Shown: piece after piece, positions 49,897 to 63,724 of the stretch
Position numbering within the stretch: position 1 is the first letter of the stretch
Layout of the letters: each line of letters starts with the position of its first letter
IMG/VR virus record: IMGVR_UViG_3300036987_000008
Span: 2,551-66,550 of that record
Length of the DNA: 64,000 nucleotides
Source: a virus
Lineage: Duplodnaviria; Caudoviricetes
Reading direction: 5' to 3' (one strand)
Notes under the pieces: generated by a model
Seen by the model: only the letters and a program-made list of their open reading frames with translations
Told to the model about the DNA's origin: nothing
Databases searched by the model: none
Program-made: the position numbers and the translations under genes

Positions 49897-50088
49897 TCAA
49901 TCGTCTTGGTCGAACCGCTGGACTTGTGCGTCCAGTACAGCCAGGGCTTGCTGAAGCCCTTGCCGCTTACCGACGAGCATCCAGTACTCGTCCTTGTCCT
50001 TCACACCGGACAGGATGCCGCGCTCGACACCCTGCAGGTCTTGTTGCAACTCGTCACGAACGACACGCGCTAGGGCGACTACGCTCAT
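49897..50088 (-). CDS. Small conserved head-module protein
   Basis: 63 aa; L..G...EY..LVG..QGL. Confidence 0.7.
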   Translation of the reverse strand: MSVVALARVVRDELQQDLQGVERGILSGVKDKDEYWMLVGKRQGLQQALAVLDAQVQRFDQDD

Positions 50089-52676
50089 TTAGATTCCTTC
50101 TTATCATCTTTCATATGGGGCTTAGCTGCATTCACCGCCGCTGCCAACATGCGCTGCTCTTCCGCGTGCTTCATCTTCTGCTTGTGTGCCTCGTCCTGAT
50201 GGGATAGCTTCTGACCGTGCTGATCACCGGCGTGAGCCAGCTGTTGTTTCTGCTGCGCCAGGCTCAGCTGGTGAGCCTCATGCTTCTGCTGCAGCTCTAG
50301 CTGGTGCGCCTCAGGACTCTTACCCGCCGCCGCTTGGCTAGCATCGAACTCAGCCGCTTTGGCCAGCATGTCGTTAGCCTGCATCTGCAAGTCATGCTCC
50401 AACGTCTTGTCGAGCTTGCCTGCATCAGCCAAGATCTTCATCGCGCCGAGCTTATGGTCACCATCGATCTTCTTCTCACTGATGCGGTTCTTCTCCGCGT
50501 CGTTCTCCAACTGCTTGGCTTGCTGCTGGACGATAGGATCTTTAGCCGCCTCTGCCGCCGCTTGTTGCGCCGCTTCAGTCTGGTGCTGTTGCAAGAGCTG
50601 CTGCGCCGCTTGAGCCATGACCACGCTCAACTGCTTCTCGACCTCAGGAGATATCTTCTCGTCCCCTGCTGGCAACGGTGCGCCCAGGCGTTCTTCGATA
50701 CGTCTACGATACTCATGCGCAACGTGCTCGTTGATGTGCGCTGTCGCCGCCGCCACTATGATCTGTGCGTTCGGGCTCTGGCCTACCAGCTGTTGGATCT
50801 TCGGATCTTGCTGAGCCGCGATGTGCGCCTTCAAGTGCGCCTCATGGTCTTGATACGCGAACGCCTTCACAGGCTTGCCCATGATGATGTTCATGTTCTC
50901 CGTGATCGGGTCCTTCGGAGTCTGTTCGCCGGAAGCGGGGATGATCTTCTCGATGTTCTTGATACCCAGTACCTCGAGCATCTGGCGATCCAGCTCTACA
51001 CGGTCGTAGATACCTGGGTTCGCAGCGGCCATCTGGCTCACCGCTTGATACTGCACCACGCGCTGAGACATCGTAGCCGCATTGGGGTCTGACACTGGGA
51101 TGATATCAACGATAGCATAGTCGGACAGCTTGACCTGCCGGCCCTCGTCCACATCGTAGTCGTACTCATCAGGTAGTTGGTCCTTCACGATCTCTTTGAT
51201 CAGCGCAAGCTCTTCCTTCAACGCTGCGTGCAGGCGCGCTTGGATGGCGGACATCACCTTCATACTGCGCTCGAGGATAGCCAGTGTGGTGCCAACCGGC
51301 GCCTCTTGGTTCATATCCGCTGCGTTCACGTCGGACACCGCCGCCATGCGACGACCTTCTTCGACGATCTCATTGAATAACGCCAACAGTGTCTGGCTAG
51401 GCTCTTTGAACGGGAGTGGTATCAGGTTGTCTCGGAGGTTCCCGGACGGGACGTCGACGTCTCGGAACTCACCTGGCTGGAGGGGGTCGCTGTCTCGCTG
51501 AACACGGATGCCTTTAGTCTTGAAACCAGCCGGGAGGTTAGCCAACGTACCAGCATCAACAAGCTGACGAAGCAAAGAAGTTGCAGAATTAGCAAAGCCG
51601 CCGACAAGATGCACAAGCCCCATCCCATAAAAGCCAAAGCCTGGGATGTAGATGTAGTGAACGAAATGCTGCGCCCTCGTTTTAGTCTCATCATCGATCT
51701 TCCAGTTGCGATATATAGAGAGAACCTCCTTCGACTGCAGGTCGAACGTCACCACATACGGCAACATGATGCCTGTTTCGTTGCCGTCAGCGTCTATGTC
51801 CTCATAACCCTCGATATCGAGGTCCAAGTGCATCTCGATCAGCTCGTGACGGTCGTCATCGATCGCTGAAATGCCCGTAATCTTGTCTTTTGCGCTCTGG
51901 CGAGAGCTTTTTGTCGGTTCCGGCAGCTCAATGTCACGGTAAAAACCAGCGACTTGCAGCTTTTTCACGTCATTCGGTGATTTCCGCATGCGATGCGCGA
52001 TACGAGGCACCGTAGACATGTCTGTCGACCCATAAGGGGCCACTAAGTCCTCTGCGGACACGAAAACAGACGTTTGGCGACCCAAACTAGGGTCAAAATA
52101 CACCTTTTTGAAGGCCGAACCCATGATTGCGAGGTTCCACAGCATGCGTTCATGCTCTGGACGGTACTCTTTCATCTGTGTTGTGAGGCGCCAGTTGATG
52201 TCGTTTTCGACTCGTTTGGCTGATTTGATGCGGATATCATCGAGTTTTCCGATGATCTGGCTCTTACAGACGCCCTGCGCACTGAAAGTGGAGGTTATGG
52301 CTTCAGCCTGGAACTTGACCGCCGCTTCGGCCATCAACGGATGCACGACACCGCATGCTCCATCCCAAGGCTCTGTACGTTCTTCGATGCCGAGGCCCAG
52401 CAGTTTGATACCTTCCTCATACATCTTCTCCCAATCGCTACGGGAGTTCAGATCGTTCTGGTATAGCTCTTCGCATTCGTCAGCAATGGAAGCTAGGATC
52501 TTAGGATCGATGGCTTCTGCGAGGTTCGAGTAGAACTCACCCTCGATCGCTTCCGCGGACAAGTCCTCTGGGAGCTCCTCGTCGCCCTCTTCCGAAGGCA
52601 GGATCACTTCGATGTTCTCTTCGCCATCGACGGGGGTTTGCTTGCTTGAACCTGCACCTACGGATTTGAATATCAT
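50085..52676 (-). CDS. Portal protein (P22-like) with long C-terminal coiled coil
   Basis: 863 aa; SR.DWE..Y..G..LLG; HP..AEAAVKFQA; L.RQL.DAGTLANLP.GFK. Confidence 0.92.
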   Translation of the reverse strand: MIFKSVGAGSSKQTPVDGEENIEVILPSEEGDEELPEDLSAEAIEGEFYSNLAEAIDPKILASIADECEELYQNDLNSRSDWEKMYEEGIKLLGLGIEERTEPWDGACGVVHPLMAEAAVKFQAEAITSTFSAQGVCKSQIIGKLDDIRIKSAKRVENDINWRLTTQMKEYRPEHERMLWNLAIMGSAFKKVYFDPSLGRQTSVFVSAEDLVAPYGSTDMSTVPRIAHRMRKSPNDVKKLQVAGFYRDIELPEPTKSSRQSAKDKITGISAIDDDRHELIEMHLDLDIEGYEDIDADGNETGIMLPYVVTFDLQSKEVLSIYRNWKIDDETKTRAQHFVHYIYIPGFGFYGMGLVHLVGGFANSATSLLRQLVDAGTLANLPAGFKTKGIRVQRDSDPLQPGEFRDVDVPSGNLRDNLIPLPFKEPSQTLLALFNEIVEEGRRMAAVSDVNAADMNQEAPVGTTLAILERSMKVMSAIQARLHAALKEELALIKEIVKDQLPDEYDYDVDEGRQVKLSDYAIVDIIPVSDPNAATMSQRVVQYQAVSQMAAANPGIYDRVELDRQMLEVLGIKNIEKIIPASGEQTPKDPITENMNIIMGKPVKAFAYQDHEAHLKAHIAAQQDPKIQQLVGQSPNAQIIVAAATAHINEHVAHEYRRRIEERLGAPLPAGDEKISPEVEKQLSVVMAQAAQQLLQQHQTEAAQQAAAEAAKDPIVQQQAKQLENDAEKNRISEKKIDGDHKLGAMKILADAGKLDKTLEHDLQMQANDMLAKAAEFDASQAAAGKSPEAHQLELQQKHEAHQLSLAQQKQQLAHAGDQHGQKLSHQDEAHKQKMKHAEEQRMLAAAVNAAKPHMKDDKKESK

Positions 52677-52685
52677 GGGGTGTCC

Positions 52686-54254
52686 TTAGTAATACTTCCG
52701 TCTGATCTTGCCATATGACTCTTCGTCTGGCTCGTCCGTCGGCAGGCGGATGAAGCCGCCCGTTCTGAAGCGCCGGAGCGCTAGGGTCATGGCGTCGACC
52801 TGGTCGTCGTGGTCGCCTGCGGGGAAGTCAGAACACTCTTCGACAACCTCCTGCGCCCAACGCCGACCCATAGGAGCCCAGACGAGTCCTGACTCAAATA
52901 TATCAGAAACACTGTTGACGCGGGCGATTTTATCTTGACCCTTGCCTGGGGTGAACTCTGAGACTGGCAGCCCAGCGTTGCGGAACTCCTGGAACAGCAC
53001 TGAGCCGGAACTCTTCTTCTCGATCACGAACGCATCTGGCTCCCACTTCTCATACTCGGCCATCATGGTCTTCTTGAGCTCAGGGTACTCCATGCGCTTC
53101 TTCCAAGCGTCGAGCAGTATGATGTTGGCCACTGGGTCGCCTCTACCCGTCTCAGGGTCTCTGAAGAACACACCCCACACCTGGCAGGCGTTGAAGTCGG
53201 CTCTGTTGTGTGCTTCCTGTGCCGCGTCGATACTCATTATGACGTACTCGCAGTCGGGCGGGTCTTCCTGGTCCCAGTCCTTCCACCAGTCGCGTTTGAT
53301 CAGGGCACCAGCCTCGCCGGTGGGGTTCTGCATGTACTGGGCGTTCCACAGGAACGGTGCCATGACAGCCTTCTTCTGCTTGAGCAGGTCTAGGGGCCAG
53401 CGCTCTGGCCACAGTGATTTCTCCTCTGGCGTATCTTCGTTCAGTATGGCTGGGAACTCCACTACCTCCCACTGCTCGGAGTCCGGGTTCTTCGTCATCT
53501 GGTCGATGAGCTTGCCGATCAGGTCGCCTTTGTTCCACCTAGTGTGGATGATGACCACCGCGCCGGTAGGCGATAGCCGTTGCAGAGGACCCGACTGGAA
53601 CCAGGTCCACGCGTCTTCAAACACATCAGTATTCCCTGATATGACCGCCTGCTCGGAGAACGGGTCGTCGACCACGACCAGGTCCGCACCACGTCCAGCT
53701 AGCGCGCCACCAACACCGACCGCGTAGTACTCACCGCCGCCACTCGTCGCCCACTGACCCGCCGCTTTGCTGTCCGCTTTGAGGCTGACGGCTGGGAACA
53801 CCTCTTGGAATTCAGTCGTACTGATCAGATCTCGCACCTTACGGCCGAAGCCGGTCGCCATGTCCCCGGTGTGTGATGCCATGATGATGCGCCGGTTGGG
53901 GAACTGCCCGAGATACCACGCTGGGAACAGATAGGACGACATGAGCGACTTACCCATACGAGGAGCGACGCTGATCAGGATCCGCTTCTTCTCCCCGCGG
54001 GCTACCGCATCCATCAGACGTGCCAGCTGTCGGTGGTGCGGCCCGACCATGAATACCTTGGGTTCCGTTTCGATCTGCAGTACGGGGGCTACGTGATGGG
54101 CAAAGGCGAGAAGAGAAGTCTTAGCTTTATTGGCACTGTTGCGCTTCTGCAGTTCCTGTATCAACTCCAACGCCTCTGTCTGCTCCGCGAGCGGAAGCTT
54201 ATGCAGGTTAGCCATGATGGAAGCCAACTGCTCCGCCGAAAACGTACTAAGCAT
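52686..54254 (-). CDS. terL: Terminase large subunit
   Basis: Walker A APRMGKS; Walker B LVVVDDP; HTRW; SIDAA; IEKKSSG; HDDQVDA. Confidence 0.95.
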   Translation of the reverse strand: MLSTFSAEQLASIMANLHKLPLAEQTEALELIQELQKRNSANKAKTSLLAFAHHVAPVLQIETEPKVFMVGPHHRQLARLMDAVARGEKKRILISVAPRMGKSLMSSYLFPAWYLGQFPNRRIIMASHTGDMATGFGRKVRDLISTTEFQEVFPAVSLKADSKAAGQWATSGGGEYYAVGVGGALAGRGADLVVVDDPFSEQAVISGNTDVFEDAWTWFQSGPLQRLSPTGAVVIIHTRWNKGDLIGKLIDQMTKNPDSEQWEVVEFPAILNEDTPEEKSLWPERWPLDLLKQKKAVMAPFLWNAQYMQNPTGEAGALIKRDWWKDWDQEDPPDCEYVIMSIDAAQEAHNRADFNACQVWGVFFRDPETGRGDPVANIILLDAWKKRMEYPELKKTMMAEYEKWEPDAFVIEKKSSGSVLFQEFRNAGLPVSEFTPGKGQDKIARVNSVSDIFESGLVWAPMGRRWAQEVVEECSDFPAGDHDDQVDAMTLALRRFRTGGFIRLPTDEPDEESYGKIRRKYY

Positions 54255-54834: not shown

Positions 54835-54937
54835 TCTGCGCAGCCTGGGTTGCGATACGGCATCGTACCCGATTTCCCAAATTTATAAAAATATTTTTGA
54901 TCGACCTCGGAATTCCGATGGCGGGGGTGTTTATGGG

Positions 54938-54959
54938 CGACATGTAAATTTACATGTCG
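54938..54959. repeat. Perfect 22-bp palindrome CGACATGTAAATTTACATGTCG
   Basis: Read directly; lies in the divergent intergenic region upstream of terS. Confidence 0.85.
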
Positions 54960-55079
54960 GGGTTTGTAAAGTGACTTGACATTAAGTAGGTTGGTTATGC
55001 AAAACTCAGGGTTAAAGGGAGCGCACACAAAGTCAGAAAAAGGGGTGATGCCCCTACGGTGGGTCGCGCCCATGACGAT

Positions 55080-55103
55080 GGACGGCAGGTCTAACTGCTG
55101 TCC
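55080..55103. repeat. 24-bp palindromic element, degenerate copy
   Basis: GGACGGCAGG-TCTA-ACTGCTGTCC. Confidence 0.65.
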
Positions 55104-55107
55104 AGAC

Positions 55108-55135
55108 TTGCATCATGCTACGCATTCTATACTAT
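55108..55135 (+). promoter_or_regulatory. Putative sigma70 promoter for the first rightward gene
   Basis: TTGCAT, 16 bp, TACTAT. Confidence 0.4.
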
Positions 55136-55212
55136 GGGAACTGTAGCAAGTAGGGGCAACACCATAGGGTTATGCCTTGTTACCTGCTACATATTACTGG
55201 AGATTATCAGCT

Positions 55213-55893
55213 ATGAAAAACGCAAACACAAAGAACGAAGTTATCCGCACTAAGAACATGGGCTCAGCCGTCCAGTCCTATATCAGTGCAATAGAACAGG
55301 CAAACGTAAGCAAGGACGCCGCATACGCCTCACTGCGTAAAGCTGTGCGTGATGGCATAGCATCAGGTATCAAGGGTAACAAGCTTGCCTATGCCGAGTA
55401 TCGCCGCCGTGTTACCTACTGCGCTGATAAAATCTTTGCTAGTGGGGTTAGTACAGCATCCACGGCAAAGACAATAGCGGATACCCTAATCCGCGGTATG
55501 AAAGCGGACGGATGGACTCCACCTGCTCAGGTACTGGACGATAGCGAAAAGGCTGAGAAGGCGCGCGCTATCGCCGCCAATGTTAAGGCAAAACAGCGCG
55601 CTTTGACTAAAATCAAAGCTGAGCTGAAAAAGGCTGAAGCCGGACGCAAGTGGAGAGAAGGCGAGCTAGCCGAACTCGCTGAAGTTCGGTACGCTGAACA
55701 GCGTGATGAAACGAAAGACCAGAAGGCACAGCAAAAGGCAGTAGCATCAAAGCTTGAAGGCACAACAGGCTTTAATGTCCTAGCCTTTCCGAAAGAAGTA
55801 AAGGACGGCAAGTATTCCGATGGCGCATTGCCTCGCAGTTTGGCGGCATTCGCGGCATTCATCCAGACCTTCAAAGAAGAAACGGCAGAATAA
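55213..55893 (+). CDS. Basic Ala/Lys-rich helical early protein
   Basis: GGAG SD before ATG 55213; followed by a terminator. Confidence 0.75.
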   Translation: MKNANTKNEVIRTKNMGSAVQSYISAIEQANVSKDAAYASLRKAVRDGIASGIKGNKLAYAEYRRRVTYCADKIFASGVSTASTAKTIADTLIRGMKADGWTPPAQVLDDSEKAEKARAIAANVKAKQRALTKIKAELKKAEAGRKWREGELAELAEVRYAEQRDETKDQKAQQKAVASKLEGTTGFNVLAFPKEVKDGKYSDGALPRSLAAFAAFIQTFKEETAE

Positions 55894-55903
55894 GTAACCC
55901 ACT

Positions 55904-55932
55904 AACCCCACCCGAAAGGGTGGGGTTTTTTT
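55904..55932 (+). terminator. Intrinsic terminator
   Basis: AACCCCACCC-GAAA-GGGTGGGGTT followed by T5. Confidence 0.88.
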
Positions 55933-55951
55933 GCGCCTGCGTTTTGGCATA

Positions 55952-55975
55952 GGACAGCAGTTTGAACTGCTGTCC
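55952..55975. repeat. 24-bp palindromic element (followed by T9, terminator-like)
   Basis: GGACAGCAGT-TTGA-ACTGCTGTCC. Confidence 0.92.
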
Positions 55976-56082
55976 TTTTTTTTTGCGCCCGCGTTTTGAG
56001 ATCGAAGGAACAAGTGTTGATGCCGCAGGTGTGCGTTCGCACGCGCGACAGCGCGCGCCGCGTGGCGTAGCCACGGGACGAA

Positions 56083-56106
56083 GGACAGCAGTTTGAACTG
56101 CTGTCC
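56083..56106. repeat. 24-bp palindromic element
   Basis: GGACAGCAGT-TTGA-ACTGCTGTCC. Confidence 0.92.
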
Positions 56107-56169
56107 GCAGGAACACTTGTTCCCGACCTGCCGAGGGCTTGCCGCGCGTGTGTAAAGATAGTAATGGAA

Positions 56170-56193
56170 GGACAGCAGTTTGAACTGCTGTCC
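56170..56193. repeat. 24-bp palindromic element
   Basis: GGACAGCAGT-TTGA-ACTGCTGTCC. Confidence 0.92.
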
Positions 56194-56632
56194 ATAGGTG
56201 AAACTGGGCGTTACGACGACGGTTACGTTTGGTGCCTCTGTAACCCAATAGGCACGGGGCGTGTAGACAATGTTACGCCCGAATTCGTGCAAGGTCGGGC
56301 ATGGGATGTAGTCAGGGCATGGGTGGTGTGGTGTTTAGTAGTAGTAGTATTAATATAAATATATAGTAAGAGGGTAAATATATATTTTTAGAGGGCGGAA
56401 AGCGAGGCGGGGATTGTAAAGTGCTAGCAGGAAGAAAAGATCGAAATGGAGGAGCCGAAAGACACCTCGTTCAAATATCCTACTTCGTTAACATGGCGAC
56501 ACGAACCCTTATTTTGTAAAGTAGGCTCATTGCCCAATGGGTTTGAGAGCGTAACTACCCCGAACCCGCCACGCCCCCAAAAACACCCCATTTCACCCCT
56601 TCCGCCTATATAGAATAAGGCGTAACCACAAA

Positions 56633-57181
56633 TCACCCTTTCGTAGATACGCCGCTATCGCTCTTATTTAGAGGCTCGGGACGCCTTCCTTCTTGTATAT
56701 CAATGAGTTGCTGCTGATACTGCAAGGTGATTGCGAGGATGTGGTCGTTACGAACAGCCCTAGCTTTTTCTAATCTTGCAGTATTTTGTAGTTTGCGATC
56801 TCTCGCATCCATGCGCTTCAGCTGCTGTTTGTCAACCGCGATAGCTTTTAGGTACTGCGACTTCGCAAATTTCAGCCTTGACAAACGCAACAACTCATCC
56901 GTTTTTGCCGCCGCCCGCACCTCCCGAACCACCTCTCGATGCTCTATACGCGCAAACGACCTAGCATTCTCCACCTTCAAAGCATACGCCTCCCGCTTTG
57001 CTCTCTTTGCGCGGCAAACCCGACACTCACTACTCCATGTATCGGGCTGATACTTAACCTTGCCGTCCGTGCCGATGTATCGGAAGTCCTTATGGTGTTT
57101 ATGACTGATGCGATACTCGCGGGCTTCTTTAACCTGACCGCAACAGGCACAGGTGGTAGGAACAAGCTTCGGTTCACTCAT
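56633..57181 (-). CDS. Basic protein with N-terminal Zn finger
   Basis: CACCG...ECRVC; ATGA-type coupling with the upstream gene. Confidence 0.65.
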   Translation of the reverse strand: MSEPKLVPTTCACCGQVKEAREYRISHKHHKDFRYIGTDGKVKYQPDTWSSECRVCRAKRAKREAYALKVENARSFARIEHREVVREVRAAAKTDELLRLSRLKFAKSQYLKAIAVDKQQLKRMDARDRKLQNTARLEKARAVRNDHILAITLQYQQQLIDIQEGRRPEPLNKSDSGVSTKG

Positions 57182-57956
57182 GGCTCGCCCCTTCGATCTC
57201 GGCTAACTTCCTCGCAATAGCCTTGCCCAGTGAGCTATGCTTACCCTGACCTTCGCCGTCCTGCGTCCCCGCTACGCGGCGGGCTTCGGATACCTTCTGT
57301 GCATACTCAGCGTCCCCTTCTTTCAACCACGTCCGCTCGCGGAAGTCCTCTAACTTCTGCTCGTACTGCGTGACGAGCTTGCTTATGGTGGTCAGGTTTA
57401 CCCCCTCTCGTAACATCCGTTCGCGAGGCATATCCAACTTTTTGCGGAGTTGGTTTATGTGGTCGAGCAGGTTGCGTTCTACCCGCAACGCTTCTCTTAT
57501 GGCGACCCCGTCCGCAGTAACCCGATTTATCTCATCCCGCATGGCACGCACCTTTGCGATTATTTCTTTCTTCGTACCTGCTCGGAACACAGTCGACATA
57601 CCACCCACCCCACGAGCGCGAGCTGTTTCCATATCGCGGCACAGATGGCAATGCCCGAACGCGCCCGCGCCCTTGAGGAACGCATCGGCGCTACGATACC
57701 CATGACAGTTCGGACAATGCCTAGCGCCCTTGCGGTTGCGTTTGGCGCGGGTGGTCAGTGCGTGGTCGCGGCGTTGGCAATCTGCTTTGAACGCTTGGGT
57801 GTAATACTTCCTCTTATACGCAACCGCTAGCTCGGAGTGCGTAGCACACAGAGTACACCGAGGCGCTGATCGCAAGTCATCCTGCCCCCACTTATCTTTC
57901 TTGTACACCGTAGCGCCACGCTTGCCGCAGTCCGCACACTTATCTACATCAGCCAT
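57174..57956 (-). CDS. Multi-CxxC Zn-finger/coiled-coil protein
   Basis: AAGGAG SD before ATG 57956; CADC, CTLC, CPNC, CHLC. Confidence 0.7.
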   Translation of the reverse strand: MADVDKCADCGKRGATVYKKDKWGQDDLRSAPRCTLCATHSELAVAYKRKYYTQAFKADCQRRDHALTTRAKRNRKGARHCPNCHGYRSADAFLKGAGAFGHCHLCRDMETARARGVGGMSTVFRAGTKKEIIAKVRAMRDEINRVTADGVAIREALRVERNLLDHINQLRKKLDMPRERMLREGVNLTTISKLVTQYEQKLEDFRERTWLKEGDAEYAQKVSEARRVAGTQDGEGQGKHSSLGKAIARKLAEIEGASHE

Positions 57957-57987
57957 GATAGTTCTCCTTTGGTTAACAGCTGACCGC

Positions 57988-58015
57988 ATAATACTCGGTA
58001 CTATAAAAATTGCAA
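57988..58015 (-). promoter_or_regulatory. Putative leftward sigma70 promoter
   Basis: TTGCAA, 16 bp, TATTAT on the minus strand. Confidence 0.55.
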
Positions 58016-58076
58016 GTGCGTATTTTAGTTTCGAGGTAGTTCGCCTCTGAACCCCAATAACGACGGTATCGTTTAC

Positions 58077-58105
58077 TTGACAGTGGTGTCATACTCCTGT
58101 ATAAT
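58077..58105 (+). promoter_or_regulatory. Consensus sigma70 early promoter
   Basis: TTGACA (58077-58082), 17 bp, TATAAT (58100-58105). Confidence 0.9.
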
Positions 58106-58147
58106 GGTTACATTGGATGGGAGAAGTAAGCCCTTCCGATACCCGAT

Positions 58148-58171
58148 GGACAGCAGTTCGGACTGCTGTCC
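58148..58171. repeat. 24-bp palindromic element
   Basis: GGACAGCAGT-TCGG-ACTGCTGTCC. Confidence 0.92.
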
Positions 58172-58218
58172 TTTGTTCGACTACCGATGTAGTCGGTTTA
58201 CAAACTGAGGAGTTAATC

Positions 58219-58374
58219 ATGACTGGAAACAAATGCGACAACTGTCAGGCGCAGTTCAACTGCGTAAGCGAGAGCGGCAACTGCGATGAGGCGAAGGAAC
58301 GGTATGTTCCTTTGGAAGACGAGGAGGTGGTGTGGCTTGTCATCGACCACGATGTCGAGGGCACTGCACCCTGA
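58219..58374 (+). CDS. Small Cys-rich early protein
   Basis: GAGGAG SD; CDNC...C...C. Confidence 0.55.
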   Translation: MTGNKCDNCQAQFNCVSESGNCDEAKERYVPLEDEEVVWLVIDHDVEGTAP

Positions 58375-58392
58375 CGTGCGAACAAGTTTCAC

Positions 58393-58416
58393 GGACAGCA
58401 GTTCGGACTGCTGTCC
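58393..58416. repeat. 24-bp palindromic element
   Basis: GGACAGCAGT-TCGG-ACTGCTGTCC. Confidence 0.92.
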
Positions 58417-58439
58417 TTAACTAATCTAAGGAGAGAATC

Positions 58440-58841
58440 ATGGCAACAGCACACGAGGTACGCTCGGCGTACATAGCATCACATCAGCAAGACCTGTTCA
58501 GTATGTTCTTTGTCGGCGACATTCGCCCACTCATCGAGGATAAACAGCACACCTCGAACGAACAGCTTTTCTCTGGCAACAGCGTCCGACTAGTCGGCGG
58601 CACGAACGCATACTGGAAGCACATGGACGGTTACTTCTTCGTGTGCGGCAACGCGGTCGAGATGAAGGACTTGTATGATGTGATGATTCACAGCTACGAG
58701 CTGATTAAGATCGATATCAACGGGGTCGAGGTGATAAGCATCCGAGCCTTGCCCCGCACGCAGAAACAAACAACCGTTGAAGTTGCGTTAACGGTATTCG
58801 ACTTCACAGAGCGTGCCGAGCAAGCATTCTTTGAACGCTAG
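58440..58841 (+). CDS. Hypothetical early protein
   Basis: AAGGAG SD; 133 aa. Confidence 0.7.
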   Translation: MATAHEVRSAYIASHQQDLFSMFFVGDIRPLIEDKQHTSNEQLFSGNSVRLVGGTNAYWKHMDGYFFVCGNAVEMKDLYDVMIHSYELIKIDINGVEVISIRALPRTQKQTTVEVALTVFDFTERAEQAFFER

Positions 58842-58849
58842 GAGGCATC

Positions 58850-59107
58850 ATGAAACTCATCAAGTACCGTGTCAATGGTAAGACACACATCGATCGATTG
58901 GTGCGTGCCGACACACCGCAGTTCGCTACCGAGCCGCACATCTTGGTGGAACGTAACATCTGGTTGCAGTACGCATGGCGCACATCCATGTGGTTTGCAT
59001 TGTCCGAAGTGCAGGTGGAATGGATACAGGAGTTCTGCGGCGACAGTACCGCTGACTGGGCGTTCCACCCGTGTGAGAACGAGGAGAGCGAGCATGAAAC
59101 GCACTAG
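58850..59107 (+). CDS. Hypothetical early protein
   Basis: GGAGG SD; 85 aa. Confidence 0.65.
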   Translation: MKLIKYRVNGKTHIDRLVRADTPQFATEPHILVERNIWLQYAWRTSMWFALSEVQVEWIQEFCGDSTADWAFHPCENEESEHETH

Positions 59108-59235
59108 CCAAGTGCAGGGTCGCGTGTACGTTGCATGGATACAAGCATTCAAGGAGGCACTCGATGCGGGGCGCGAGTGGTCTTATCTTTCACCAGTACG
59201 CCCCACACAACTGCGTTTATTTTAAGGAGATTATC

Positions 59236-59454
59236 ATGAAGACGTTGGACTATACCGTAGCACCGCTGTCGCTTGTCATCGCCCGTCATGAGGCGGAACA
59301 TCGCGCGGCACAGCATCAAGTAGGCATTCAAACTGCCAAGTTCTACCATATGCACGGAGACCTGTGTGCTATCGCACAGGAGGAACTGCGCTTGTACGAC
59401 ACATACAAGACAGCTAACGACAAAATCGATCGATTGGAGGTGCGTCATGACTGA
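59236..59454 (+). CDS. Hypothetical early protein
   Basis: AAGGAG SD before ATG 59236. Confidence 0.6.
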   Translation: MKTLDYTVAPLSLVIARHEAEHRAAQHQVGIQTAKFYHMHGDLCAIAQEELRLYDTYKTANDKIDRLEVRHD

Positions 59455-59725
59455 ACGGACAATCAAGTGCAACAGTAAGGAAGAATTCCACAACGAACTT
59501 AAGCGTAGCCTCGCCGAGTTCACCAACGATGTTGTCGATGCCGAGCCGTTGGGCATACTGGCTATCGTGGACTATGGCGAAACAACGCAGGTACTGCGCG
59601 TAGGTAGCGAGCGTGCTCTGTTGTCTATCGATCGTGAGCTGGAACGTCCGAACATCGTTCGTATAAATGTAGCATGGTACGTCTTGGTGTTCGCACTCGG
59701 ACTGCTGTTGGGCGTGTGGTTGTAG
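59447..59725 (+). CDS. Small protein with C-terminal TM helix
   Basis: GGAGG SD; ends VAWYVLVFALGLLLGVWL. Confidence 0.6.
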   Translation: MTERTIKCNSKEEFHNELKRSLAEFTNDVVDAEPLGILAIVDYGETTQVLRVGSERALLSIDRELERPNIVRINVAWYVLVFALGLLLGVWL

Positions 59726-59752
59726 GAACAAGCATCATTTTGTAGCACCCTC

Positions 59753-59776
59753 GGACAGCAGTTTGAACTGCTGTCC
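59753..59776. repeat. 24-bp palindromic element
   Basis: GGACAGCAGT-TTGA-ACTGCTGTCC. Confidence 0.92.
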
Positions 59777-59805
59777 TTAATCGTAATCAATTAGGAGATT
59801 TAATC

Positions 59806-60873
59806 ATGGCTAAAGCCAATACAGTAGCACAAGTAAAAGACCTTTCCCTTCGTCAAATCGTGCAGTTGATTACTGCGTGCGGTAACAACGTGGCGTTTCA
59901 CCTCGAAGGTGAGCCAGGGGTCGGCAAGTCCTCTATCCTCGAAATGCTCAAGAAGTTGTTGGGTGAGAGCAAGTATGACTTCGTGTATGTGGACTGCCCG
60001 TTGATTGACTTGCCTGACTTCGCCATGCCGTATGTGGCGGACGGGGTAACGCACTACGCACCAAGCGCGATGTGGAAACTCAAATCCAACAAGCCGAAGG
60101 TCGTGATGTTGGACGAGCTGTCCAAAGCACCGAACGTGGTCAAGCCTATGTTCACGCGCTTGGTGCTTGAGCGTTGCATCGGTGAGTTCGACTTGCCAGA
60201 GGGTAGCATCGTGTTCAGCACCGGCAACTACGCATCGGACGGTGTGGGCGACTCCATGCAAGGGCACGTTAACAATCGTGTCGGTAAGATAAGCGTGGCG
60301 AAGCCAACGCAAGAGGAGTGGATTGAGTGGGCTATCCTCAATGAAGTGAACGGGGGCATCATCTCTGTCGTTCACCAGATGCCTCAGCTGTTGCAGTCGT
60401 ACAAGGACGACCCGAAGGGCGAGAACGAATACATCTTCAACCCCAAACGTAATACGGGGGCGTTCGTATCGCCACGCTCGCTAGCGAAGGCGGGGTTCAT
60501 CCTCGACCATCGTGAACAGTTCGGCAACGACCTGACTCTTGAAGCACTCAAGGGCATCATCGGGGTCAGCGCGGCGGCTGAGTTCATCACTATCTTGGAC
60601 GTAGCCGACAGCTTGCCTACTTGGGAAGCGATCGAAAAGAATCCGACCAAGACCGAGATACCGAAGTCGAAGGCGGCGCAGTTGCTGTTGCTGTTCGGGT
60701 CTATCTCTCGCGTGAACAAGAAGAATGCCGAGGCATACACCTCGTACTTCTACCGCTACGAGGATGAACTGAAGATGTTGTGGGCGCGTCAGTTCAAGAA
60801 CAAACTCGAAGCGGTGATGGGCGTGAAGGAGTTCCGTGAGACGCTCGTTGCGTGCCATTGGATATTTTCGTAA
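59806..60873 (+). CDS. MoxR-like AAA+ ATPase
   Basis: Walker A GEPGVGKS; Walker B VVMLDE; STGN; SPRSL. Confidence 0.9.
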   Translation: MAKANTVAQVKDLSLRQIVQLITACGNNVAFHLEGEPGVGKSSILEMLKKLLGESKYDFVYVDCPLIDLPDFAMPYVADGVTHYAPSAMWKLKSNKPKVVMLDELSKAPNVVKPMFTRLVLERCIGEFDLPEGSIVFSTGNYASDGVGDSMQGHVNNRVGKISVAKPTQEEWIEWAILNEVNGGIISVVHQMPQLLQSYKDDPKGENEYIFNPKRNTGAFVSPRSLAKAGFILDHREQFGNDLTLEALKGIIGVSAAAEFITILDVADSLPTWEAIEKNPTKTEIPKSKAAQLLLLFGSISRVNKKNAEAYTSYFYRYEDELKMLWARQFKNKLEAVMGVKEFRETLVACHWIFS

Positions 60874-60883
60874 GCGTACCACA

Positions 60884-60907
60884 GGACAGCAGTTCAACCT
60901 GCTGTCC
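60884..60907. repeat. 24-bp palindromic element (reverse orientation, one mismatch)
   Basis: GGACAGCAGT-TCAA-CCTGCTGTCC. Confidence 0.88.
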
Positions 60908-60943
60908 ACACCCCTACGGGGTTAGTAATCAAAGGAGATAATC

Positions 60944-61342
60944 ATGGGGTATCGAAGTGAAGTCGCGTTGTATGCACGTCACCCTCGGGTGAAGGAGATG
61001 CTCGCGCAGTATGCCGAGCACAATGAGTTGTTCCAAGAGGCGCTGATGGGTCGGCAAGAGCACACCTGTCTACGCAACTTCAAGATGTCCGAGCCAGAGT
61101 ACCGCACGTCTTGGGTGCTGTTCGAGTGGGAGGATATCAAGTGGTACTCGGGCTCATCGTGGGTAGACAGCACGATGAAGTTCGTGGAGGAACTCGGTGC
61201 GATGTGTGATGCCGAGGGTGGCGACAACTGCGTATCGTTCTGTCGCATAGGTGAGGACAGCGATGACGTCGAGCGTCTGTTCTACGGTGATGAAGCATAC
61301 AACTACGTCGATGTTAGTCGTAGTATGGAAATCAATATTTAA
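60944..61342 (+). CDS. Conserved hypothetical phage protein
   Basis: MGYRSEV...WEDIKWY...FCRIGED.DD.E. Confidence 0.8.
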   Translation: MGYRSEVALYARHPRVKEMLAQYAEHNELFQEALMGRQEHTCLRNFKMSEPEYRTSWVLFEWEDIKWYSGSSWVDSTMKFVEELGAMCDAEGGDNCVSFCRIGEDSDDVERLFYGDEAYNYVDVSRSMEINI

Positions 61343-61352
61343 GGAGATGATC

Positions 61353-61865
61353 ATGGCTTTCAAAACTTTTTCTGTTAACCAATCGTGGAAGGACATACAG
61401 AAGAACGGGGTGCGTCAAGTGCCTCGCTTGTACAACGAACTGTTGGAGTGTTGGGACGCGGCGAGTGCTCGTCAGCTAGCATCAGGTGGACTCATGCTCA
61501 TCCGTGATGTGCGTATGTTCAAGATCGATGACCGCTTCGATTTCGAGTTCTCGGGCTACAAGTTCTACTCTATCAACGACAAGAACATAGCGACCGCATA
61601 CCCTGCGCCTATTGCGAGTGCGCAGTTGGACGGGCGGTACCAATTCCTTACTGGTCGGCATCTGTATCCTGACAGGCACGGTGTGCTGACGTTGTACCGC
61701 GCGTTCATTCGCGGTGAGTATGTGCAGGGGCAGGACTACAACGAGTGCAACACCCTGCGCGCAGTCGAGGAGTTCAACCCGACTGTAGTGTACGACAAGC
61801 CCATAACGTGGGACATGGGGTTGATTATGGCAACGATGAAGTTAATCAAACAAGAGGAGTATTGA
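61353..61865 (+). CDS. Hypothetical early protein
   Basis: AAGGAG SD before ATG 61353. Confidence 0.7.
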   Translation: MAFKTFSVNQSWKDIQKNGVRQVPRLYNELLECWDAASARQLASGGLMLIRDVRMFKIDDRFDFEFSGYKFYSINDKNIATAYPAPIASAQLDGRYQFLTGRHLYPDRHGVLTLYRAFIRGEYVQGQDYNECNTLRAVEEFNPTVVYDKPITWDMGLIMATMKLIKQEEY

Positions 61866-61896
61866 CGCGAACCCCGCAACTACCATACACGAGAAC

Positions 61897-61925
61897 TTGC
61901 CAAAGCCTTTACAATAACTTATAGT
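61897..61925 (+). promoter_or_regulatory. Putative sigma70 promoter in front of the HNH gene
   Basis: TTGCCA, 17 bp, TATAGT. Confidence 0.55.
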
Positions 61926-61953
61926 GTTGGCACGACATGACATTGGAGGTTCT

Positions 61954-62430
61954 ATGATTACACACGATAGGTTGGTAGAGGTGCTCGCATATGATGCAGA
62001 TACGGGCGTGTTCACTTGGCGCAAGGCTACGAACCTGCACATCGTGGTAGGAAGCGCGGCGGGGAGTATTGTGGGTAGAGGGTACTTGCAGGTACGCATA
62101 GACAAGCGCAACTATCAAGCGCATAGGCTTGCGTGGTTGTATGTGTACGGGTGTTGGCCTGCGGGGTCGATAGACCACATCAATGGGGTTAAGTTAGACA
62201 ACCGTGTATGTAACCTGCGGGATGTAACCCACGCCCACAACATGCAGAACCAACACCGAGCGCATAAGAACAGTAAGACCGGTGTGCTAGGTGTGTCCAT
62301 GAACGGTGCTGGGTTCACAGCAGCGATAAAGGTAGGTGGTAAGCGGTATGGTCTAGGTACTTATAAAACGGTAGCCGAGGCTGGCGAGGCGTATCAAGTA
62401 GCGAAACGTAAATTACATATAAGGAGATGA
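61954..62430 (+). mobile_element. HNH homing endonuclease with AP2-like C-terminus
   Basis: Y.AHRLAWLY..G.WP...IDHINGVKLDNR..NLR; SKTGVLGV...F.A.I...LG.Y.T..EA..AY. Confidence 0.88.
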
Positions 62431-62434
62431 TCAA

Positions 62435-63688
62435 ATGGCTACATACACAGTGCTGCAGAGATTGCAAAGAGGGCGTATGGCTCTCATGTCGCACCAGAGT
62501 TGGTGCCTCTACTCAGGGATACTGATGATGGGGGAGTTCGGTGTGCGGAAGGACATACCTACGGCGTGTACTAATGGGCGAGATGTGTGGTTTGGCGAGC
62601 AGTTCGTATCCACCCTCACCGATGCAGAGATACGGTTCTTGATACTGCACGAGTGTGAGCACAAGGCGTTGCGTCAGCTGACAACGTATGCCTTCTTGTC
62701 GAAGAAAGACCCAAAGCTGTGCAACATCGCGATGGACCACGTTGTGAATCTGCGCATCATGGATGGTGATGACGGTGAGGGTTTCATCAAGCTGATTGAC
62801 GGCGCGTGCTACGACACCAAGTATCGCGGGTGGTCAACGAAGCAAGTGTTCGATGACCTGATGCAGAATGGCGGAGGTAGCGGCAAGGGTAAAGGTAAGG
62901 GCAAGGGCGCGCCTGACCAAGGGCAGGGTGATGGCAACCCAACTGCGGGCGACGAACAAGGTTCAATGGACGAGCACGATATCGAAGGTGCTGAAGCGTT
63001 GACCCAAGAGGAGAAGGATGAGCTGAAGAAGGATATCGAACAGGCTATCCGTCAAGGTGGTTTGCTCGCAGGTAAGAACGGCGGCGGTTCAAAGAATCGT
63101 TTGGATGACGTACTGGAATCACAGATACGTTGGCAAGAGATTCTCGCCGAGTTTATCAAGTCTGTTACTAAAGGACGGGATAGCTCATCGTGGTCGCGTA
63201 TCAATCGCCGTTGGGTATCGTCAGGTATGTATCTGCCTAGCACCGTGTCTGAAACTATCGGTGGGTTGTTGCTAGCAGGTGATGCCTCTGGGTCTACTTG
63301 GTCAGGCAATCAGCTCGCAGGTTTCTTGGGCGAAGCGAAGGCTATCATCGAAGACGTAGTGCCTGACTTCGTGGACTTTATGTGGTGGGATACCAAGGTG
63401 CAAGTGGTGCATCACTTCGTGCCGGAGGACTACCCAACGATGATCGAAAAGATTAAGGAGATTGTCGGAGGTGGAGGTACTGCCCCATCGTGCATCACGG
63501 ATTGGATTAAAGAACAAAAGCCAAAACTGGACTACGTTGCCGCCGTTGTCTTAACTGACGGGCAGGTCGGCAACGACTGGGGCGACTGGACTGGTGCGGC
63601 GGAGATGCCGGTACTATTTTGTGTGAACACCAAGGGTATCACCGCACCCATCGGTCAGACTCTGTATATCGCAGAAGCAGACTTTTAA
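62435..63688 (+). CDS. HExxH metallopeptidase (DUF2201-like) fused to a vWA domain
   Basis: PTACTNG; LHECEH; MIDAS DASGS; GGGT; VVLTDG. Confidence 0.88.
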   Translation: MATYTVLQRLQRGRMALMSHQSWCLYSGILMMGEFGVRKDIPTACTNGRDVWFGEQFVSTLTDAEIRFLILHECEHKALRQLTTYAFLSKKDPKLCNIAMDHVVNLRIMDGDDGEGFIKLIDGACYDTKYRGWSTKQVFDDLMQNGGGSGKGKGKGKGAPDQGQGDGNPTAGDEQGSMDEHDIEGAEALTQEEKDELKKDIEQAIRQGGLLAGKNGGGSKNRLDDVLESQIRWQEILAEFIKSVTKGRDSSSWSRINRRWVSSGMYLPSTVSETIGGLLLAGDASGSTWSGNQLAGFLGEAKAIIEDVVPDFVDFMWWDTKVQVVHHFVPEDYPTMIEKIKEIVGGGGTAPSCITDWIKEQKPKLDYVAAVVLTDGQVGNDWGDWTGAAEMPVLFCVNTKGITAPIGQTLYIAEADF

Positions 63689-63700
63689 TGTAGTACCACA

Positions 63701-63724
63701 GGACAGCAGTTCAAACTGCTGTCC
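63701..63724. repeat. 24-bp palindromic element (exact reverse complement of the TTGA copies)
   Basis: GGACAGCAGT-TCAA-ACTGCTGTCC. Confidence 0.92.

Follow-up and report, generated by a model that had tools for sequence, protein, structure and literature searches.

The analyzed sequence (the window, 64,000 nucleotides) spans positions 2551–66550 of a 66,550-bp phage record in IMG/VR, IMGVR_UViG_3300036987_000008, which has a 103-bp terminal overlap and 66.4 kb of unique sequence. Its early region contains a repeated 24-bp palindrome, GGACAGCAGT-N4-ACTGCTGTCC. Searching the window with this pattern, allowing up to three mismatches, gave nine matches, one at each of the nine sites claimed in an earlier note on this DNA, and no match in 100 dinucleotide-preserving shuffles. 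A scan of the whole record added a tenth, perfect copy at G000:C1:1758-1781 (L162:1758-1781), 792 nt ahead of the window start, and no others. All 10 copies lie inside approximately 10.7 kb of the 66.4-kb genome. Whole-genome scanning found no copy in the replication and virion arms, and no solitary half-site of the palindrome anywhere in the genome. The non-random, intergenic and early-region-only distribution described in the earlier note is thus borne out, and the tenth copy leaves the restriction to the early region in place.

The genome is laid out as a plus-strand arm running from 58219 through the record junction to window position 19235, a minus-strand virion and packaging arm that includes TerL (52686–54254), the portal (50085–52676) and large, possibly ejected proteins, and a small block at 54900–58100. 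The plus-strand early operon is headed by a sigma70 promoter matching the consensus at 12 of 12 positions (TTGACA-17-TATAAT, 58077–58105). The two largest open reading frames (ORFs) of the virion arm encode a 947-residue protein with an LPD38 domain and a 1294-residue low-complexity protein with an HExxH motif, and sequence searches against PHROGs, Pfam and PDB detected no RNA polymerase of any kind among the large ORFs of the phage. Given the consensus promoter and the lack of a detectable RNA polymerase gene, the early operon is probably transcribed by the host RNA polymerase.

The first copy in the operon (58148–58171, plus strand, center TCGG) starts 42 nt past the −10 hexamer and, judged from the position of that hexamer, should lie near +36 within the 5′ leader. 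TTTGTT and then a second hairpin, of 8 bp, come between it and the ribosome-binding site. Four further plus-strand copies in the window are intercistronic: 58393–58416 (center TCGG; 18 nt past a stop codon and 23 nt before the next ATG), 59753–59776 (TTGA; 27 and 29 nt), 60884–60907 (TCAA; 10 and 36 nt) and 63701–63724 (TCAA; 12 and 19 nt). The second of these lies upstream of an AAA ATPase gene (59806–60873), the third follows the ATPase stop codon, and the fourth follows the stop codon of a DUF2201/VWA gene (62435–63688). The promoter-proximal position of copy 58148 and the spacing of the intercistronic copies agree with what the earlier note had reported. Six gaps of at least 49 nt occur in the operon's first 7.6 kb, and five of them hold a copy (58393, 59753, 60884, 63701 and the copy at genome position 1758), in each case between the stop codon and the next Shine–Dalgarno sequence, 7–35 nt upstream of the latter. 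The sixth large gap has no palindrome and holds an HNH endonuclease insertion; the 225-nt stretch after the last copy is filled by a gene. The HNH gene (61866–62434) looks like a homing-type insertion. It has a promoter-like site of its own (TTGCCA-17-TATAGT, 61897–61925), and a related phage, L005, has an unrelated 69-residue gene at this junction.

Three copies, all with the center TTGA, fall in a 740-bp non-coding block that separates convergent genes (55952–55975, plus strand; 56083–56106 and 56170–56193, without assigned strand). The gene at 55213–55893 is ended by an ordinary intrinsic terminator (55904–55927, plus strand) with a 10-bp stem, a GAAA loop and a T7 tail. Its tail, TTTTTTTGCGCCYGCGTTTTG, is duplicated after the next palindrome, copy 55952, which is followed by T9 (terminator-like unit 55952–55984) and repeats both the T-run and the GCGCCYGCGTTTTG tail of the preceding terminator. 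The palindrome at 55952 therefore takes the place of the stem-loop in the second copy of a terminator cassette. The 107-nt segment that contains both (55894–56000) has a predicted folding energy of −51.1 kcal/mol (z −6.6). Taking a GC-rich hairpin followed directly by a U-run as the mark of a terminator, copy 55952 (T9) fits, copy 58148 (TTTGTT) fits weakly and the other eight copies do not fit.

Copy 56083 is surrounded by an exact 12-bp inverted repeat, GGAACAAGTGTT (56006–56017) and AACACTTGTTCC (56111–56122). Ahead of the same copy lies GTGGCGTAGCCAC (56063–56076), a small palindrome in itself, which is found in the same relative place in the related phages L099, L098 and L168. As RNA, copies 56083 and 56170 are predicted to form a mutual 24-bp duplex with two U·G pairs instead of two local hairpins. 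A TTGA loop is the exact complement of a TCAA loop, and a duplex long enough for RNase III could in principle arise between any two copies on the same transcript. The remaining copy, the degenerate GGACGGCAGGTCTAACTGCTGTCC at 55080–55103 (plus strand), abuts a promoter-like stretch, AGACTTGCAT...TATACT, 5′ of the gene at 55213–55893 (226 residues, P0123), and its position is kept in L168, L169 and L170. The stretch itself (AGACTTGCAT-N14-TATACT, 55105–55132) directly follows the degenerate copy and is conserved in the same three genomes; it may be an activator-dependent promoter, since it has no acceptable −35 hexamer at a spacing of 16–18 nt.

The arms are perfect in copies 55952, 56083, 56170, 58148, 58393, 59753 and 63701. 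Copy 60884 has a single arm mismatch (A15>C), and copy 55080 has two, a G·T wobble at pair 5–20 and a G·A mismatch at the loop-closing pair. Each copy is predicted to fold as RNA into a 10-bp stem with a 4-nt loop (approximately −17 to −19 kcal/mol), with copy 60884 forming 9 bp and a 6-nt loop. The flanks of the window copies do not extend the stem, and sequence conservation ends at the 24-mer. The centers are TTGA, TCAA, TCGG and TCTA, each one substitution away from the self-complementary TCGA; a C>T change in TCGA gives TTGA or TCAA, depending on the strand, and adjacent window copies have like loops (three TTGA, then two TCGG). A relative with a 76% identical ATPase (L090) has TCGA at the center of both its copies. 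The element is thus best described as a perfect or near-perfect 24-bp palindrome. Since the center variants are point mutations around TCGA, the pairing of TTGA with TCAA need not mean inversion; the earlier claim that the element occurs in both orientations is not borne out, and inversion is not demonstrated.

Relatives of the phage were reached as metagenome contigs through homologs of the neighboring AAA ATPase, using an alignment as query in IMG/VR; a single-protein ATPase query there returned no relative. Their palindromes occupy the same junctions as in the window, and their sequences differ from genome to genome. L005, with an ATPase 97% identical at the amino acid level, has six copies of GGACAGCAAT-TYRA-ATTGCTGTCC, and L090 has two copies with the arms of the window. 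Further away, the palindromes are GGACATGGAC-ATTT-GTCCATGTCC in L091 and L104 (ATPase identity 64–65%), GGACAGAGAC-AAAT-GTCTCTGTCC in L008 and L009 (59%), CTGACACGGA-N6-TCCGTGTCAG in L099 (58%) and GACAACGAC..GTCGTTGTC in L098 and L101 (56–58%). The arm changes are compensated, CAGT/ACTG becoming CAAT/ATTG in L005 and AGAC/GTCT or ACGAC/GTCGT in others. When 31 copies from eight genomes are aligned, G2-A3-C4 and G21-T22-C23 do not vary, pairing holds in 94% of cells, and 6 of the 10 pairs change on both sides; this level of covariation was reached by none of 500 shuffles. Two relatives with 68% ATPase identity, L006 and L007, are devoid of any repeat family, but the same junctions on either side of the ATPase carry unrelated GC hairpins, looped by UUCG or GAAA, directly before the ribosome-binding site. 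In addition to the 12-bp inverted repeat around copy 56083, GAACAAG recurs 7–21 nt upstream of copies 58393 and 59753 (58380–58386 and 59726–59732) and is a second motif with sequence conservation among relatives. It also adjoins palindromes in L005, L008, L098, L099, L096 and L168, and look-alike repeats (GTTCCAAC and GGAACAAG) occur in L016.

At least three copies of a palindrome of their own are present in 42 of 157 related loci. Genome-specific examples are ACCTAAC-AATT-GTTAGGT, TGTAGTG-AAAT-CACTACA, CCTGACA-N3-TGTCAGG, TGTATCG-CATA-CGATACA and TTCCCGT-N6-ACGGGAA. In three long relatives, all copies fall within one early block of approximately 10 kb (record lengths 58.9, 54 and 44 kb, with 8, 11 and 9 copies, respectively). 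Among the 253 copies in relatives, 138 are positioned 0–30 nt ahead of a Shine–Dalgarno sequence, compared with two when the opposite strand is considered; here too, a −10-like hexamer precedes the first copy by 42–48 nt. Loop length differs among families (3, 4, 6 or 7 nt), the stems of some copies are lengthened by unrelated sequence, and stems of 7–8 bp with 3-nt loops also occur directly ahead of early genes. Many relatives have the center AATT and a palindrome that is perfect through it. In several, the conserved block takes in the ribosome-binding site and flanks, that is, a cassette.

In a subgroup of distant relatives (L033, L038, L046, L052 and L064) the palindrome is a 13–14-bp core with 12–17 copies per 15–19 kb. 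The motifs are CTGACAAATGTCAG and/or CTAACA(A)ATGTTAG, with many copies in coding sequence, and two classes with different center length coexist in L033 and L064. In these two genomes CTGACA..TGTCAG and CTAACA..TGTTAG are found side by side, with 26 symmetric (compensated) copies versus 2 hybrids, both G·T. Two synonymous changes that compensate each other, CTG>CTA and GTC>GTT, are all that separates the L033 and L038 versions of an in-ORF copy coding for DLTNVR. The stretch of the window homologous to the in-ORF copy of the MYRAxDYP gene is at residue 129 of a 284-residue ORF. An in-frame palindrome is also found in the acidic, Gly-rich linker of the DUF2201 metallopeptidase–VWA protein, just before a conserved motif, LDEHDF (L012:5406, L050:11519, L057:11522, L061:8810); the copies in L012, L057 and L061 each carry the motif of their own genome, and the DUF2201 gene of the window has no in-frame palindrome. 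A cultured Planktothrix phage, Pag-Yong1 (L167, OL906435.1, 27429–47581), is distantly related in TerL and ATPase alike and carries seven copies of CGGTTCA-N3-TGAACCG, mostly in gaps of the arm with MoxR ATPase and VWA genes.

Comparison with L005 provides a view of how the copies evolve. All five orthologous copies have changed at G9:C16 to A:T between the two phages, in flanks that are 81–93% identical. The loops of L005 are only TTGA or TCAA, which fits conversion from one founder in either orientation. Four indels or replacements separate L005 from the window, and two of them abut a copy: one insertion, a cassette of palindrome plus 216-residue gene, starts exactly at a copy, and another, a 68-residue gene, has its end exactly at the copy that follows the ATPase. 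No copy borders the remaining two, an 85-residue gene indel and the HNH gene in place of the 69-residue gene.

The palindrome has no evident counterpart in hosts or in described families. Its exact pattern occurs in 185,579 GTDB species representative genomes on only four contigs, once each, in unrelated metagenome-assembled genomes, and in IMG/VR there was no match outside the phage's own record. Repetitive extragenic palindromic (REP) elements carry a GTAG or CGTC tag at one end (PMC3733652); the present element begins GGAC and ends GTCC. A host REP element or miniature inverted-repeat transposable element, the identification that would have overturned the earlier note, is therefore rejected as far as these collections reach. 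No Rfam family scored above its gathering threshold (three sub-threshold chance matches only), searching the literature for the motif strings brought up nothing but coincidental primer matches, and megablast and blastn comparison of the region with 50,697 phage records gave no match. The phage is without a close cultured relative; its TerL is 45% identical to those of Pelagibacter phages HTVC027P and HTVC023P, and the ATPase is only approximately 25% identical to ATPases of N4-like phages. CRISPR solitary repeat units, which act as RNA anti-CRISPRs, are 28–37 nt long and match a host CRISPR repeat including its non-palindromic handles (PMC10651486); that conservation here ends at the 24-mer argues against such a unit. 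The palindromes are a genuine family of cis-elements, conserved and evolving, that is undescribed for this phage group.

It is most likely, although we hold this view tentatively and with a confidence somewhat below even, that the palindromes are a lineage-specific family of very stable stem-loops acting in the transcript, where they would punctuate the sigma70-driven early operon. The 5′ leader would hold one hairpin, and each of the larger spaces separating a stop codon from the following ribosome-binding site would hold another. At these places the hairpins may set boundaries for processing or decay and insulate cistrons, much as T7 RNase III sites or REP hairpins between cistrons do; a hairpin trailed by a U-run, as at 55952, would terminate transcription. 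The identity of copies within a genome and their joint change between genomes would result from concerted evolution, by gene conversion or by the copying of entire units, and a sequence-specific partner may add to the effect. We infer that the RNA form is the active one, and that the hairpin acts on the message, from the intercistronic and leader placement, the use of a copy as a terminator at 55952, the conserved pairing, the preponderance of symmetric over hybrid copies in L033 and L064, the hairpins of L006 and L007, and the variability of loops and stem extensions. A manual tally of internal mismatches in the close family (8 G·U versus 3 A·C on the sense strand) leans weakly the same way. 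Several observations weigh against a role in the transcript. Across all 41 families no sense-strand wobble bias is seen (A·C 61 versus G·T 37, mostly at outer positions), and the outer-position mismatches of distant families are mostly non-wobble. Terminator tails are not in excess, with T-rich sequence downstream of 24 and A-rich sequence upstream of 32 of the 253 copies; in the present genome, 8 of 10 copies lack a U-tract and are therefore not terminators. The 10-bp stem falls short of what a classical RNase III site needs. The 13–14-bp core of distant relatives often cannot be extended to a stable hairpin, and many of its copies lie in ORFs at conserved positions. Furthermore, a purely structural hairpin needs neither invariant arms nor a self-complementary ancestral center (TCGA here, AATT in relatives), and a generic stabilizer role does not explain the restriction to the early operon.

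The copies may instead form an array of double-stranded DNA (dsDNA) operators, at which a phage-encoded dimeric protein would bind the 24-bp palindrome and shut down or tune early transcription. Such a protein could be a roadblock or a promoter-proximal repressor, comparable to mycobacteriophage stoperators or the multi-site KorB of RK2, and would co-evolve with its sites. We consider this possible, and less likely than a role in the transcript. The earlier note preferred a dsDNA site to an RNA hairpin because of orientation-independence, an argument that is weak in view of the TCGA-derived centers, and the operator array stays a serious rival on other grounds: arms invariant within each genome and switching jointly between genomes, palindromes perfect through the center in L090 and many relatives, the numerous copies of the short core in distant relatives, many of them in ORFs, with synonymous compensation at DLTNVR, and the in-frame DUF2201-linker copies that follow the motif of their own genome. 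The confinement of copies to a single early stretch of roughly 10 kb in the three long relatives scanned, the position of the first operon copy just downstream of the sigma70 promoter, the lack of a wobble bias across families and of excess terminator tails, and the abutment of copy 55080 on a conserved promoter-like stretch are likewise in keeping with operators. The gene behind this stretch, that of P0123, is isolated and is palindrome-flanked in all its relatives, before the promoter-like stretch and at the terminator. P0123 was considered as a candidate binder; its AlphaFold model (pLDDT 79) is all-helical with no match to a DNA-binding fold, and Foldseek returned no match in the PDB with E <0.5. 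No helix-turn-helix or ribbon-helix-helix candidate was found adjacent to the palindromes. Divergently transcribed from the early promoter is P0121 (57174–57989, minus strand), a Cys-rich Zn-ribbon/coiled-coil protein. It is 65% identical to its L005 orthologue (170 vs 271 residues, the L005 protein being approximately 100 residues shorter), which makes it the second-fastest-evolving orthologue after a 93-residue L005 protein matching window positions 59447–59695 (60%), the rest being 83–98% identical; a protein atlas search gave only weak zinc-ribbon look-alikes and no functional lead, and the protein is uninformative here. Besides the failure to find a binder, several points speak against the array: a dimer that tolerates two variants should give many hybrids, yet 26 of the 28 copies in L033 and L064 are symmetric; half-site spacing varies, with 13 and 14 bp within L033 and 3–7 nt among families; and ten fully conserved base pairs per half-site exceed what typical dimer operators show. 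Related genomes also replace the element with generic RNA-type hairpins, and one copy is built into a terminator. Because whole-unit gene conversion would explain much of the DNA-site evidence without a reader, the role in the transcript is placed first and the operator array second. With about the same probability as the operator array, the palindrome may serve as an early-class tag, a cis-signal before early genes, and in relatives also inside them, that would be read by a phage factor whose specificity drifts with its sites.

Two further explanations are less probable. The palindromes could primarily be recombination joints, homology patches for the gain, loss or swap of early cassettes, with regulation secondary. 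The two insertions that begin or end exactly at a copy are suggestive of this, though not decisive, as in T4-type early cassettes (PMC4122927), and unit-wise conversion in L005 and the cassette-like conserved blocks of several relatives fit as well. The two other indels, including the HNH replacement, are not bordered by a copy, sequences peculiar to each genome would make exchange between different phages harder, and the conserved pairing, the leader copy and the in-ORF copies are left unexplained. A homology of 24 bp is also short for efficient exchange. We regard recombination joints as an improbable primary role. The earlier note had listed RNA stems and recombination joints as alternatives to a DNA site, and both gain to some extent, from the T9 cassette at 55952, the UUCG and GAAA hairpins of relatives, the lean to G·U and the two of four indels at copies. 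Least probable, and by our estimate very unlikely, are hairpin promoters or other single-stranded DNA signals read by an unrecognized ejected polymerase, as at the early promoters of N4, where hairpins have a 5–7-bp stem and a 3-nt loop centered at −11 (PMC4496689). This precedent, the distantly N4-like ATPase/VWA module, the relatives' 7–8-bp stems with 3-nt loops directly before early genes, and the genome-specific sequence expected of a polymerase–promoter pair speak for them. They are opposed by the perfect sigma70 promoter at the head of the operon, the 10-bp stem and 4-nt loop, the negative polymerase searches (the two largest virion-arm ORFs carrying the HExxH motif and the LPD38 domain instead), and the copies that lie in ORFs or so near the Shine–Dalgarno sequence that the transcript would lack it.

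Repeated phage-specific palindromes between early genes are already known from a few phage groups. The comparative series available here is unusually clean: dozens of related genomes have different, compensated palindromes at shared junctions, all copies have switched jointly between two phages with a 97% identical ATPase and, in distant relatives, synonymous codon changes keep in-gene copies matched to the motif of their own genome. It makes RNA structure, a DNA-binding reader and gene conversion testable as drivers, and the cultured Pag-Yong1 could serve as an experimental system. The elements could also mark the early region in contigs of uncultured phages. If the early-class tag proposal were true, the lineages of a large phage group, nearly all of it uncultured, would each have a private address for switching off or processing early genes, a natural and rapidly re-programmable pairing of a reader with an array of sites.

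Among known systems, the arrangement recalls the early region of T7, where host polymerase transcribes from strong sigma70 promoters and similar hairpins lie between stop codons and the next ribosome-binding sites. The early polycistronic transcript made by host polymerase and the mutually similar intercistronic hairpins are shared. T7 RNase III sites, however, are structures of approximately 50 nt with an internal loop and roughly two helical turns of duplex, whereas the present element has a perfect 10-bp stem, below the usual RNase III length, and could reach 24 bp only by pairing between copies. The stoperators of Cluster A mycobacteriophages are asymmetric, oriented sites of 13–14 bp that occur genome-wide in temperate phages and act as elongation roadblocks for the phage repressor. 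They likewise comprise many near-identical short sites in intergenic gaps, along one direction of transcription and with a phage-specific consensus; the present element differs in being symmetric, early-only and confined to 10.7 kb, in a genome without visible lysogeny genes. Bacterial REP elements share the intergenic or intercistronic placement of hairpin-forming palindromes and their homogenization within a genome, and differ in that the phage element has no host counterpart in the GTDB genomes, no GTAG/CGTC tag and no RAYT-like gene in sight.

Closer in kind are repeats of other phages. The promoter-early stem-loop (PeSL) cassettes of T4-type phages (PMC2839356, PMC4122927) are short repeated stem-loop motifs in early, plastic regions, between small genes without assigned function, at which indels start or end. 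PeSLs are composite terminator/promoter units, whereas most copies here have neither promoter nor U-tract (a scan found a promoter only near 58148), and the arms of a near-perfect 24-bp palindrome change in concert. Cluster O mycobacteriophages carry a 17-bp palindrome, TGTTCGG-N3-CCGAACA, with 34 copies in Corndog (PMC4351075), and Cluster K phages carry extended start-associated and start-associated sequences (ESAS/SAS), inverted repeats specific to the lineage that precede the start codons of non-structural genes (PMC3203893). The latter report also cites the Cluster A stoperators. Like the element described here, the Cluster O and K repeats are phage-specific, have invariant arms and a variable A/T-rich center, and occur in many intergenic copies or near gene starts; the Cluster K consensus is moreover lineage-specific and confined to the non-structural half, and the function is unknown there as well (PMC4351075, PMC3203893). 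Those repeats belong to other phage groups and hosts. The Cluster O copies are genome-wide, one third of them deep in ORFs, in contrast to 10-bp arms and ten copies within 10.7 kb, and the Cluster K ESAS are imperfect 17-bp inverted repeats tied to an asymmetric SAS at the ribosome-binding site. While the present palindrome fits the full definition of none of these systems, it belongs with them in general kind, as a regulatory palindrome that is phage-specific and repeated within the early or non-structural region.

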